Below, in pieces: positions 4,672 to 12,579 of a stretch of 64,000 bases of DNA; positions within the stretch are counted from its first letter, which is position 1; every line of letters begins with the position of its first letter. The DNA is from a virus: IMG/VR virus record IMGVR_UViG_3300046534_001250, positions 18,034 to 82,033 of that record; one strand, 5' to 3'. The translations under genes and the position numbers were made by a program. The notes beneath the pieces are model-generated. The model was not told where the DNA came from. It worked only from the letters and a program-made list of their open reading frames with translations, and did not search any database.

Positions 4672-6003
4672 ATGGAACCAGAACAGAATCAATTTGTACA
4701 TCTTCACGTGCACACCGAGTACTCAACTTTGGATGGCATCAATCGAGTTGATCAAACACCAGATCATATCAAAAGCATGGGGCAAGAAGCTGTAGCTATT
4801 ACAGACCATGGTAACGTCGCTGGCACTTACGACTTCTTCAAAGAATGTAGAAAGTCAGACATCAAACCAATCCTTGGCATGGAAGCTTATTACACAGTAA
4901 ATGATAAATCAGCGCGTGAAAAAGACGAAGATGGAAAGAACTACTACCATTTAATCCTTCTTGCTAAGAACAACATAGGGTTAAAGAACCTCTATGCTAT
5001 ATCTACTAAAGCTTTTACTGAAGGTATGTATTATAAGCCTAGGGCAGATGATGCTTTGCTGGCCGAACATTCCGAAGGAATTATAGCCACAAGTGCCTGC
5101 CTTGGGAGCAGGGCTTCCCAGCTTATCTTAGCTGGTAGGAACGATGAAGCTGAACGACTTATCCTGCATCACGCCGCTATCTTTAAAGGCAACTTCTTGA
5201 TCGAGATCCAACTACACGACGATGATCAACAGCTAGTTAATGCAGTACTAATCCTTATAGCCAATAAGCACGGCCTGCCAATCATACTAAGTAATGACTG
5301 CCACTACCAACATGAAGTCGACAAAGAACTACACGAGCAGGCTCTCTGTATGTCAACGAATATGATTATGTCAGATCCTCCCTGGAATCCAGAGTCTAAA
5401 GGAACTGCGACAGGCAAGACTCGATTCTCTTTCGGAGACATTGACGTCCACGTAGCCTCGACTGAATGGATGTGGAAGAAGGCAAAAGCTCTAGGCATCC
5501 CATTAGAAGCTATTACAAACACTAGGTACGTAGCCGACATGATTGACGACTCGTCTTACTTCATGGACAAGAAAAACCGCTACCCGTCATTCCCTGGACT
5601 CAGTGGGCTCCCACCATGGGAGGCTCTTGAGAACTTATCAAAGCAAAAGCTTATGGAAAAAATGGGAGGTATGCCGCCGGAAGAATACCGGGATAGAATG
5701 AATAGCGAACTAGCAGTTATTAAGAAGATGGGCTTCTACGACTATCTTCTTATCGTTGAAGACTTCTGTACTGGTGCTCGCTCTGAGGATGTATGGATTG
5801 GCCCAGGACGAGGAAGCGCAGCAGGATCATTAGTAGCTTATGCGCTAGGGATCACGCAAGTAGATCCTATCAAGTACGGCTTAATCTTTGAAAGATGGCT
5901 TAATTACGGGCGTGCCGCAACCCCGCTTATCTTTGATAGGCAAATGATTAAACAAATAAAGGAAACACATGTACCAAAAACAACCTGTGGCCACAGTCAC
6001 TGA
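4672..6003 (+). CDS. dnaE: Family-C DNA polymerase (DnaE), N-terminal gene: PHP domain plus GS/Arg part of the palm
   Basis: [67 protein letters not shown]; ends without PDIDIDF. Confidence 0.93.
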   Translation: [443 protein letters not shown]

Positions 6004-6199
6004 ACCACAAATAGATATGATGTATCGTCATTTTAGAAATGCGATGCGTAAAAACTCTTGGCCAATTCCAAACCGCACAGAGTTCAGACAAATCTGTGTC
6101 ATCTCGTTAGATCCAGAGGTTGAAGTCAAAGACGGCAAAACCGCTGTTGATAGCATCATCGCCGACTACGAACTTATATTAGGCGGCTACGATGGATGA
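5969..6199 (+). CDS. Hypothetical protein
   Basis: 76-aa ORF, AAGGA RBS, overlaps dnaE-N end and the next gene. Confidence 0.6.
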   Translation: MYQKQPVATVTEPQIDMMYRHFRNAMRKNSWPIPNRTEFRQICVISLDPEVEVKDGKTAVDSIIADYELILGGYDG

Positions 6200-6470
6200 C
6201 ATGCTAGGCAAGCCTGTTAAAGTAGGCGACTACTTTTTACTGGCAGTAGGTAATCCTCGATATGGAGGTATCGTTGCCTCTGTAGGCAAAGTAGTAGGCA
6301 GCACGGAAAAGATGTGGACGTGTGCTCGTATTATAGATATGCGCAAAGACACATTGAAGCTTAAGGTCTCTAACTGTAAGGCTAAGAAGTTCTTAGTTGT
6401 CCCAAGTACCGTCATCGATCAGTGGCCAGAAGCAAAAAAGCTTCTGGATTCAAAAGATTTAAAAGTTTAA
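6192..6470 (+). CDS. Small phage protein, SH3/KOW-like N-terminus
   Basis: DMLGKPVKVGDYF...VGKVVG pattern common in small phage proteins. Confidence 0.6.
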   Translation: MDDMLGKPVKVGDYFLLAVGNPRYGGIVASVGKVVGSTEKMWTCARIIDMRKDTLKLKVSNCKAKKFLVVPSTVIDQWPEAKKLLDSKDLKV

Positions 6471-10848: not shown

Positions 10849-11232
10849 TAACAACAAAATTCTTTATACGCTATACTCCAACCGAGAGGCAAGTATGCAC
10901 GCTAAAAGAAAAGCCCGGTATCTGGGTGACCAGATGCAAAAACCACCCCGTGAATTGCTGGGAAGTCCTGAAGAGGATGATCAGCAGCCAAGCCCTGAGA
11001 GCAATCTCTCGGAAGGTTCAACGACTAGTTCAAACGTTCTCACCGAGAATATGAAGGACCACGAGCGCGGGGCATCAATACCATTCAAAGAAATTATCTC
11101 TGCACATCTAATGACAGCAGAGACCAAACTTAAATTTGAATACATATTTGATGATGATATAGTCTGAGCTACGTATATAACAAAGCAAAACGTAGAAGCG
11201 CAGGATAAAGAGCCTGCGCGATAACATAACTG
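10849..11232 (+). ncRNA. Group I self-splicing intron (IA-like, 384 nt) in dnaE
   Basis: 5' exon ends in U (GGT); IGS GCCCG; P AATTGCTGGGAA, Q ATCAGCAGCC, R GTTCAACGACTA, S GATATAGTCTGA; P3 CCCCGT/GCGGGG; P9 hairpins; terminal G at 11232; removal restores RRAMG|KKK in frame. Confidence 0.93.
10895..11167 (+). CDS. Intron-internal 90-aa ORF, possible homing endonuclease remnant
   Basis: GCTATACTC motif, GAGAGG RBS and ATG in the P1 loop; frame stays open through the ribozyme core and ends DDDIV* at the S element; no nuclease motif. Confidence 0.4.
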   Translation: MHAKRKARYLGDQMQKPPRELLGSPEEDDQQPSPESNLSEGSTTSSNVLTENMKDHERGASIPFKEIISAHLMTAETKLKFEYIFDDDIV

Positions 11233-12579
11233 AAAAAAAAGATGTCCGTACTTGAGGCAGTTAAGCCCAAGTTCATTACAGGATGCCTAGCAAGCGGTAC
11301 GACCTCAGGAGCCGCTGAAGCTCTTTGGAAGCAGTTGATTCTATTCAGTCACTACGGCTTCAACAAGTCACACAGCGTCGCTTACAGTGTCATTACGTAC
11401 GTGTGTGCATACCTAAAAGCCAACTATCCAGCAGAATTCTTCTGTGCCCTCATGACTATCCGTAGTCAGACGATGGCTACTAAGGATTGGTGCCTTAAGG
11501 CGCCAGAGTATGTGCAAGAGGCAGAGAACATGGGGATCCGTATCCACGGACCCAACGTTCAGCAAAGTAACATCGGCTTCAGTATCGTAGAGAAGGAGAT
11601 TTACTTTGGACTTAATGCCATCAGAAATGTAGGTATTACAGGTGCCAGAAGTGTAATGCAGGCACGAGGAAACCGTCGATTTAAAGACGTCAATGACTTC
11701 GTCTTCAGGATTGACCGCCAGAAAGCAAACACGAAAGTGTTCGCAGCCCTAATATACGCTGGAGCCTTTGACAGAATGGGGTACGACAGAAATGAATTGC
11801 TAACCAGCGCAAGAGCCCTCTATGATTATCCAAAAGATTATCAAGACTCTGTAACTAGAGACGCAGACATTGTTGTCAGAGACAGGCAAAACATAGTGGT
11901 TGAAACGCGAAGAGAAGAGATAAGACTTCTTGTTAAGGAAGCTAAGGCTCTCAACCGAAAAGCCTTAAAGGCTAATCTGCCTGTGTCAGAAGAGACTGAA
12001 TACTGGGTGGAATACACTCAGTATATTAAGGACTTGAAGGCAAAAGCGGCAGACATTAAACAGGCAGAGGAGGAGTTGGAAAATCATTTTGACCAAAGAG
12101 AATTAAAAGACTACCTAGAAGCAGCATCGCTAAGAAAGCTGCCAGCACTTAAACCTAAGCCTAAGCCAGAAGTAGTTATTGTTTCTAGGAGCACTACGAT
12201 TAGTTTGTCAGTAGACCAGCTAATTATGCAAGCCGATTACATTGGTTGCTACTTGGGTGACAATCCAGCGGCAATCATTTTCCCAGAAGCTGAGGCAATC
12301 GCCGCAGTAGAAGACTGCGACTACACTATTATTTGTGGAGTCGTAACCAAAGTGAAAGAAATCATGACAAAAGCAGGAGACCCAATGGCCTTCTTGCAGA
12401 TTGGAGACGGAACTGCCATGGCAGAGATCGTCGTATTCCCTAAGCAATTTAAACGCTTTCACGAGAACAAAACGTTCCCTGCCGAAAAAGATCTAGCTCA
12501 GTTTGCTGGACGTATAAAAGGCATGGAACCGATCACGATGCTAGCGGATCAAGTCGAAATTTACAGGAGACCTGAATGA
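11233..12579 (+). CDS. dnaE: DnaE C-terminal gene, exon 2 (fingers, HhH, OB fold)
   Basis: KKKMSVL.., YGFNKSHSVAY, YLKANYPAEFFCAL, FGLNAIRNVG, LIYAGAFD; OB fold KEIMTKAGDPMAFLQIGD. Confidence 0.93.
   Translation, partial: KKKMSVLEAVKPKFITGCLASGTTSGAAEALWKQLILFSHYGFNKSHSVAYSVITYVCAYLKANYPAEFFCALMTIRSQTMATKDWCLKAPEYVQEAENMGIRIHGPNVQQSNIGFSIVEKEIYFGLNAIRNVGITGARSVMQARGNRRFKDVNDFVFRIDRQKANTKVFAALIYAGAFDRMGYDRNELLTSARALYDYPKDYQDSVTRDADIVVRDRQNIVVETRREEIRLLVKEAKALNRKALKANLPVSEETEYWVEYTQYIKDLKAKAADIKQAEEELENHFDQRELKDYLEAASLRKLPALKPKPKPEVVIVSRSTTISLSVDQLIMQADYIGCYLGDNPAAIIFPEAEAIAAVEDCDYTIICGVVTKVKEIMTKAGDPMAFLQIGDGTAMAEIVVFPKQFKRFHENKTFPAEKDLAQFAGRIKGMEPITMLADQVEIYRRPE

Follow-up and report, generated by a model that had tools for sequence, protein, structure and literature searches.

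Replicative polymerases are, in textbook terms, enzymes with single-chain catalytic cores. The locus described here raises the question of how a phage replicates its DNA when the gene for such a core stops in the middle of the active site and resumes several kilobases downstream. It lies in a stretch of 64,000 nucleotides (positions 18,034 to 82,033 of IMG/VR virus record IMGVR_UViG_3300046534_001250; hereafter the window), in which dnaE, encoding a family-C polymerase, is present as two genes on the plus strand, gene 1 at 4672-6003 and gene 2 from 9673 onwards, with a gap of 3669 nt (6004-9672) between the stop codon of the first and the start codon of the second. The two-gene split is real, old and intein-free, and hundreds of relatives share it. 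We consider it probable (roughly 80%) that the replicase of this phage is a family-C DnaE polymerase of two non-covalently associated chains with a composite active site, which arose from a duplication within the palm.

The source record is approximately 82 kb long with an estimated completeness of 62%, and the window is part of it. The source is an uncultured phage of ice metagenomes, and DNA nearly identical to the window was found in several ice-metagenome runs. Because it carries genes for rIIA and rIIB, a UvsX-like recombinase, a primase, an ATP-dependent ligase, ThyX and a baseplate wedge protein, the phage is probably large and contractile-tailed. None of the cultured phages in the phage collection exceeds 43% identity to the dnaE pieces.

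Complementary motifs of the two dnaE genes

Gene 1 (piece A) is preceded by the ribosome-binding site AGAGGA and encodes a protein of 443 amino acids (aa) comprising a PHP domain and the N-terminal, nucleotide-binding part of the palm, followed by the vestige of a strand and by a tail that is variable and rich in Cys and His. Pfam places the PHP domain (PF02811) at residues 10-182 (E 1e-47) and finds only profile positions 2-102 of DNA_pol3_alpha, and phmmer aligns the protein to residues 3-416 of Mycobacterium tuberculosis DnaE1. In an alignment of 37 homologues, from which all conservation figures for gene 1 are taken, the nine PHP metal ligands (H12/H14, D21, H46, E71, H93, C143, D209 and H211) are invariant or at least 90% conserved, in agreement with the initial annotation, which had recognised a full ligand set. 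Because all nine are present, the PHP domain of chain 1 is probably a proofreading exonuclease, as in M. tuberculosis DnaE1.

The palm part of gene 1 carries the motifs that bind the incoming nucleotide. The GS motif of the Pol-beta-like nucleotidyltransferase fold is present as GPGRGS (5800-5817, residues 377-382), in which G377, G379, R380, G381 and S382 are invariant, and the helix that follows it contains FERWLNYGR (5887-5913, residues 406-414), whose two arginines correspond by motif alignment to R390 and R396 of the Escherichia coli enzyme and in which F406, R408, L410, N411, G413 and R414 are invariant. The most conserved segment of gene 1 comprises residues 371-418, with a mean pairwise identity of 76% as against 64% for the PHP domain, a degree of conservation that would be hard to explain unless the segment serves catalysis. 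Beyond FERWLNYGR the protein reads AATPLIFD and soon ends, with the stop codon at 6001-6003. The region of TPLIFD (5920-5937, residues 417-422) is aligned by phmmer to MPDID of the Thermus aquaticus (...NPERVSMPDI) and M. tuberculosis DnaE proteins; the proline is kept, P418 being invariant, and the positions of the aspartates are now occupied by L and F. TPLIFD is a vestige of the PDIDxD catalytic strand that has lost its aspartates, which bears out the earlier observation that gene 1 reads this sequence in place of PDIDIDF and then stops.

Gene 2 starts at 9673 with its own ribosome-binding site (AGGA) and matches positions 94-260 of DNA_pol3_alpha and positions 1-144 of the finger domain (PF17657) in Pfam, as well as residues 381-734 of M. 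tuberculosis DnaE1 by phmmer. It contains NPHNSILLYVTGLTDDFDPIK, together with PPDIDIDF (9910-9933, residues 80-87) and KFDFLG (10390-10407, residues 240-245), so that the start signal and both catalytic motifs are where they had been described. By motif, D82 and D84 of PPDIDIDF correspond to D401 and D403 of E. coli, and D242, the third catalytic aspartate, and K240 of KFDFLG to D555 and K553. In an alignment of 28 homologues, which underlies all conservation figures for gene 2, P80, P81, D82, D84 and D86 of the first motif and K240, F241, D242 and L244 of the second are invariant. Within its bounds, which run to 12579, gene 2 is interrupted by a group I intron (10849-11232), described below, of which the initial annotation of the gene made no mention.

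The nucleotide-binding motifs are thus found in gene 1 only and the metal ligands D82, D84 and D242 (with D86 and K240) in gene 2 only, both sets being invariant across the clade, which is the division of the active site that the initial annotation had proposed. Since gene 1 corresponds to residues 3-416 and gene 2 to residues 381-734, the two genes overlap on M. tuberculosis DnaE1. Together they have the domain order, motifs and PHP ligand set of the single-chain enzymes of M. tuberculosis (DnaE1, PDB 5lew and 7pu7) and T. aquaticus (PDB 2hpi), to which they match with E-values of 1e-57 to 1e-72; the PHP ligands, the palm motifs and the fingers, HhH and OB domains of a DnaE-type polymerase are all present. 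They differ from these enzymes in that a stop codon and 3.7 kb separate the FERxLNxGR helix from the PDIDxD strand and in that the second half bears an extra module of 77 residues. A single-polypeptide core is lacking in the window and in each of the 15 related loci considered next.

Recurrence of the split in related phages

The same arrangement was found in 15 IMG/VR loci, 11 of them close and four distant. The close relatives (L003-L013, 58-70% identity) have the same stop after FERxLNxGRxxxP... and the same extension at the start of gene 2, and their gaps, of 418-4020 nt, differ in gene content and orientation. The distant loci (L048, L067, L075 and L068, 31-36% identity) share both the break and the extension, where the motifs NKSNSAILY and NPNNSNIAF are found. 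Over all 15 loci the gap ranges from 321 to 4539 nt and its content is variable. In a collection of 5.8 billion metagenomic proteins, the matches to gene 1 at 57-74% identity include at least 118 clusters with lengths of 407-508 aa, from contigs that measure up to 205 kb. This collection yielded no close relative in fused form; full-length DnaE proteins in it reach at most 45% identity to gene 1, and the longer proteins that are close to it (61-67% identity, 800-817 aa) consist of gene 1 with an inserted intein. By comparison, at 64 other phage and bacterial loci with a contiguous dnaE, the tblastn matches of piece A and of open frame B of gene 2 (9673-10851) overlap, by a median of 104 nt and a maximum of 254 nt, and always lie in one frame.

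Contigs of at least 99% identity from four other ice-metagenome runs bridge both gene ends, where gene 1 stops and where gene 2 begins. With the recurrence of the layout in relatives and in metagenomic protein clusters, these bridging contigs exclude misassembly or recent breakage. In a quick maximum-likelihood tree, the 16 split rows, including that of the window, all fall on one side of a single branch (a weak support of 71 in the Shimodaira-Hasegawa-like approximate likelihood-ratio test, SH-aLRT), with none of 500 shuffles as low. This placement is compatible with a single origin of the split lineages.

The Pfam families PolA and PolB have no match in the record or in three relatives that are 100% complete (192, 162 and 161 kb, two of them with terminal repeats), and each of the complete relatives has exactly two DNA_pol3_alpha (PF07733) matches, at positions 2-102 and 97-260. 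By these profiles, the split DnaE is the sole recognisable DNA polymerase of the record and of its complete relatives. In a widespread lineage of uncultured phages of 110-200 kb, replication appears to rely on a DnaE that has its dNTP-binding residues on one polypeptide and its metal-binding residues on another.

The proposed composite active site and its alternatives

Because the cut crosses the catalytic centre and is not accompanied by an intein, both chains most likely contribute to one active site. A predicted complex of the two chains is consistent with this arrangement, scoring 0.90 in three of three runs as compared with 0.00 for the best of three controls. The mark applied to these scores is reached by 58 of 80 solved complexes and by two of 110 mismatched pairs, counts that are only a rough guide here, since our own alignments were fed to the prediction. 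The runs agree in at least 91% of their contacts, with the partner modelled at a predicted local distance difference test score (pLDDT) of at least 85, and when the true partner is replaced the pLDDT of the chains drops from 86 to 69 and from 89 to 72. In the model, W375 and I376 of gene 1 touch D86-E88 of gene 2, the strand pairing expected for a Pol-beta-like sheet, and the GS strand of chain 1 is thereby predicted to lie beside the DIDIDF strand of chain 2, as had been anticipated. The modelled interface involves residues 371-383 (including GPGRGS), 407-410 and 414-422 of gene 1 and residues 19-57, 71-88, 192-196 and 235-241 of gene 2; within it, L419 of the vestigial strand touches D74 in the linker that precedes the catalytic strand of the partner. 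When gene 2 was modelled alone with AlphaFold2, pLDDT fell below 50 at residues 71-90 and 230-246, with a predicted template modelling score (pTM) of 0.40 and template modelling (TM) scores to DnaE of 0.33-0.37, and this model is too poor globally for placing the N-terminal extension.

The extension (9673-9903, residues 1-77 of gene 2) appears to be a second copy, devoid of motifs, of the helical module that ends gene 1, as it has neither the GS motif nor the FER motif. Modelled alone with AlphaFold2 it is helical (pLDDT 84, pTM 0.73), and among 48,161 representative PDB chains its best structural match is residues 316-410 of M. tuberculosis DnaE1 (Z 4.5, root-mean-square deviation 3.1 Å over 74 residues). 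The top seven matches are all family-C polymerases, either DnaE or PolC, and only 19 chains reach a Z of 2. In the M. tuberculosis DnaE1 chains and two PolC chains, the extension aligns to the part of the palm that precedes the catalytic aspartates, whereas the range in the E. coli and T. aquaticus chains is too wide for it to be placed. A Z of 4.5 is modest, but in this model the specificity for family C is striking, and of the lines pointing to a duplication this structural comparison is the strongest. By whole-gene hhalign, gene 2 is collinear with DnaE through the extension, with high confidence at NSILLYxTGLT, and BLAST alignments to dozens of unrelated phage DnaE proteins begin at residue 53 or 54. 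Because the extension on its own folds like the DnaE segment with which chain 1 ends, a partial tandem duplication is the best reading of it, and because it matches the DnaE palm while gene 1 keeps TPLIFD, the two genes would overlap by approximately 80-95 residues of the ancestral protein. Other tests of the duplication were negative: BLASTP of gene 1 against gene 2 gave an E-value of 0.17, hhalign of the gene 1 tail against the gene 2 head gave 0.11, a profile of the extension had no DnaE match in PDB or Pfam, Foldseek with the extension model returned nothing significant (7pu7 ranked second, with E 3.6 and TM 0.53), and comparison of the DNA at the gene 1 end with that at the gene 2 start revealed no duplication.

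The initial annotation had described the second copy as decayed. That it is a second copy without GS and FER motifs is upheld by its structural matches, while the notion of decay is not: residues 49-77 have a mean identity of 69%, as high as that of the polymerase core, residues 9-36 have 52%, and R12, D17, L21, E24, D32, N50, P51, N53, S54 and R72 are invariant. The extension is under purifying selection. As the complex model places residues 19-57 of the extension in the interface, in line with the earlier suggestion that the duplicated helical element joins the chains, the extension and the tail of gene 1 would act as docking elements.

The association of the chains, their composite site, proofreading by the PHP-bearing chain and the order of evolutionary events that we infer can be described as follows. 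Chain 1 would supply the PHP domain and the nucleotide-binding half of the palm, namely the strand before GS, GPGRGS and the two FERxLNxGR arginines. Chain 2, after self-splicing of the group I intron, would supply the three catalytic aspartates together with the thumb, fingers, HhH and OB domains, and the active site would form only once the chain 1 strand pairs with the DIDIDF strand of chain 2 in one beta-sheet. The fission would have arisen once, long ago, by partial tandem duplication of approximately 80-95 palm codons, after which the gene would have broken between the copies. The upstream copy would have kept the triphosphate-binding motifs and lost the aspartates, and the downstream copy would have lost the GS and Arg motifs and been kept as a docking arm wrapping the palm piece of chain 1. 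More speculatively, the duplicated module could be an evolved heterodimerisation device, allowing the PHP/nucleotide-binding subunit to be made, dosed or exchanged separately, with the genes in different transcription units and fast-changing cargo between them, or the lineage could preserve or re-create a modular ancestral state of family-C polymerases; we regard either as doubtful. If it were true, this would be a natural system in which the active site of a replicative polymerase is assembled in trans.

Several observations weigh against a two-chain enzyme born of duplication. The structural match of the extension is middling at Z 4.5, and the extension alone has no DnaE homology detectable by sequence, with no match in HMMER or Pfam searches; when it was aligned in isolation to a DnaE profile of 1154 columns by hhalign, the expected 11 columns came out only second-best (E 0.13). 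The branch that unites the split lineages is weakly supported at this SH-aLRT, and long branches are involved. Since the two chains are halves of a protein whose single-chain structure has been solved, the success of the complex model may reflect memory of that structure, and it shows likeness, not binding. Lastly, the extension keeps an invariant N50, aligned with the GS serine, and an invariant R72, next to the R390 position, and because these are invariant it may have a degenerate nucleotide-binding role of its own. These polar residues near the serine and arginine positions, in what looks like a structural copy of the nucleotide-binding module, would suit a self-sufficient chain 2 in which the extension is a modified nucleotide-binding element, chain 1 being a separate PHP exonuclease or pyrophosphatase that docks onto it or acts in trans. 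We consider this unlikely, as the extension lacks the strand before GS, the glycine-rich turn and both arginines, and the stretch at the position of the pre-GS strand is a part of the alignment that varies in length. Moreover, the canonical motifs are the most conserved part of chain 1, which would go unexplained if they were idle, and the catalytic strands model poorly in chain 2 alone.

A covalently joined product, made either by protein trans-splicing through an unrecognised mini-intein or by RNA trans-splicing, is another alternative, and the extension has a feature that recalls it: NP(H/Y)NS is invariant at N and S, and N53-S54 resembles the C-terminal junction of an intein. Elsewhere in dnaE, members of the same clade do carry genuine group I introns and split inteins. 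However, no Hint or intein family of Pfam matches the extension at E<=10; genuine split-intein halves (PF14890, a positive control) are detected at the other break in relatives. Gene 1 has Pfam matches to PHP and DNA_pol3_alpha only, and the helical fold of the extension matches that of the DnaE palm and not HINT. At the end of gene 1 the residue following GR is A, G or S among homologues, leaving no conserved nucleophile, and the tail behind it, 25-40 residues long, is poorly conserved (26-34%). As for splicing of RNA, the gap has genes on the opposite strand, and a cmscan search of positions 4000-13500 at E<=1 found no ribozyme and no Rfam family in it, while the same scan detected the true intron 1.2 kb away with 62 bits. 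With the absence of an intein or intron at the break thereby borne out, joining of the products appears highly improbable. That the locus is broken, non-functional or misassembled has nothing in its favour other than the stop codon itself, and the conservation of the locus already refutes this reading, given that both frames are open, that lineages with as little as approximately 31% identity share invariant catalytic residues, that the layout recurs in independent assemblies and runs, and that the split DnaE is the only polymerase in the complete relatives. The two-chain enzyme with a shared active site is the reading that we retain.

The system had been put forward as undescribed, which does not hold for its kind. 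A split minimal Pol III alpha was predicted in group 2.2 jumbo phages by Iyer, Anantharaman, Krishnan, Burroughs and Aravind (Viruses 2021;13:63, PMC7824862), and there too the cut lies between the NTP-binding and the Mg2+/DNA-binding subdomains, no intein is involved and reconstitution was predicted. The boundary of the present split, expressed in positions of Pfam DNA_pol3_alpha, is 2-102 versus 94-260. The system of Iyer et al. (PMC7824862) has no PHP, HhH or OB domains, is encoded by distant genes alongside a family-B polymerase and was proposed to be ancestral-like, and the passages that describe it make no mention of a duplicated junction. In the window, by contrast, a full-length bacterial-type DnaE is the sole recognisable polymerase, its halves are neighbours, and the second half bears an extra copy of a module. 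No group 2.2 phage was among the 120 tblastn matches listed, nor did any organism group named among them point to one, and we saw no BLAST-level similarity of these phages to the clade of the window.

Genes in pieces are likewise known from other phage enzymes and from other dnaE genes. In T4-like phages, the 43A and 43B products of the family-B polymerase gene (Aeromonas phages 25 and 44RR) co-purify and polymerise, and the split NrdA of phage Aeh1 is active (reviewed by Edgell et al. 2010, PMC2988022). As in the window, an essential phage enzyme is there made as two polypeptides without an intein, and its non-covalent reassembly has been established biochemically; these cases differ in that they concern other enzyme families, are confined to a small number of phages and go together with insertions that are untranslated or encode homing endonucleases (PMC2988022). 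A dnaE encoded in pieces is also found in split-intein systems, namely the cyanobacterial DnaE-n/DnaE-c and the marine metagenomic 'fractured genes' (Dassa et al. 2009, PMC2677866), where the mechanism is a different one. At the present break HINT motifs and a conserved nucleophile are lacking and Pfam and PHROGs recognise no endonuclease gene in the gap, and to judge from these sequence features its pieces must stay separate. A literature search, which was incomplete, returned nothing on intein-free split DnaE in phages beyond the 2021 prediction and the split-intein papers. The kind of system is already known, and we found no description of a full-length, sole-replicase DnaE with overlapping copies of a junction module. 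Among the T4-like genes in pieces, none is known to us in which a segment at the junction is duplicated.

If our reading is true, the locus would provide the engineering of two-part family-C polymerases with a split point taken from nature, and would serve to test how genes undergo fission through duplication and complementary loss within an active site. It would also mean that annotation pipelines miss or mislabel both halves, naming them 'DNA polymerase III alpha' or partial.

Introns, inteins and the surroundings of the split

Gene 2 is interrupted by a group I intron of 384 nt (10849-11232, plus strand), which lies between RRAMG and KKK, has no open reading frame (ORF) of note, and in particular none for a homing endonuclease, and matches Rfam RF00028 with 62.2 bits (curated cut-off 50, E 3e-14). 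The 5' exon ends in ...AUGGGU, with a U before the 5' splice site, and the last base of the intron is G. Read from the sequence, removal of the intron gives RRAMG-KKK-MSVLE, the same as in relatives, none of which has an intron at this site among those examined. Because this restores the RRAMG-KKK junction of the relatives, gene 2 is predicted to be join(9673..10848, 11233..12579), with a spliced product of 840 aa. Exon 1 (9673-10848, 392 aa, ending RRAMG) encodes the extension, the catalytic palm, the thumb and most of the fingers, and corresponds to open frame B (392 aa), which has positions 94-260 of DNA_pol3_alpha and the finger domain. Exon 2 (11233-12579, 448 aa) encodes the end of the fingers and the HhH and OB domains, the latter two lying in open frame C (11242-12579, 445 aa); Pfam HHH_6 (PF14579) matches it at E 1e-23 and the OB fold PF01336 weakly, at 25.5 bits against a cut-off of 27. 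It is collinear with the uninterrupted genes of 807-808 aa in L005 and L009. A contig of run X4 with 74x depth joins position 10782 to 11353, with only 20 letters on one side and with borders that do not coincide with the splice sites; it probably stems from a more abundant related phage without the intron and was set aside.

Other interruptions of dnaE are found among the relatives. In L004, L006-L008, L010-L012 and P0122-P0138, gene 2 (530-549 aa) ends in the N-terminal half of a split intein (PF14890) after GFADY|C, and the rest of dnaE lies 3-5 kb downstream, so that DnaE is there encoded by three genes, after the manner of the 'fractured genes'. In L003, LAGLIDADG ORFs occur in two introns (6966-7990 and 9159-10080), one exactly inside PPD|IDIDF and one after FANYG, and L052, of the unsplit lineage, is seemingly interrupted at PPD|IDTDF (11200-11926). 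The codons of the catalytic strand are a homing hot spot. Several homologues of gene 1 (P0062, P0086 and P0139-P0143, 745-817 aa) contain a full intein with a LAGLIDADG domain. In this single clade dnaE is a hot spot of interruption at which all known kinds occur together: the break without an intein, introns of group I and with LAGLIDADG ORFs, and inteins both whole and split.

The gap between the two genes begins with two small plus-strand ORFs (5969-6199, which overlaps the end of gene 1, and 6192-6470), followed by a cassette of four minus-strand ORFs (6497-7360, 7360-8247, 8229-9194 and 9188-9607) with a terminator-like hairpin of its own on the same strand (6475-6496). PHROGs and Pfam give no family for five of these six ORFs and recognise no homing endonuclease among them; the ORF at 6497-7360 has a weak patatin match (27.6 bits against a cut-off of 27.7). 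The beta-rich ORF of 139 aa at 9188-9607 is the only one with homologues in the gaps of relatives (L003, L007 and L013), and in the Atlas it matches solely viral hypothetical proteins. No direct or inverted repeats flank the gap at the DNA level, and a scan for sigma-70 promoters gave results at chance level.

Several minor features lie close to the two genes. The last residues of gene 1 (423-443, window 5938-6000) form a Cys/His-rich end, with CxHxH and sometimes HKCSxxxC in one subclade, and end in ...PF in another; the Cys/His-rich form is a possible metal site. A direct repeat of 17 nt, identical at 15 of 17 positions, is present just past the stop codon of the ORF at 4104-4331 (4339-4355) and just past that of gene 1 (6007-6023), and may be a regulatory or promoter-like motif. 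Directly 3' of dnaE is a metallophosphoesterase gene (12576-13685), possibly encoding an Mre11/SbcD-like nuclease, which adjoins dnaE in every split lineage, even in the distant L048 and L067. A separate gene for a DEDD-type 3'-5' exonuclease (22436-23026, Pfam Rv2179c-like, E 3e-29) is located 10 kb downstream, and its product could be an alternative or additional proofreader.

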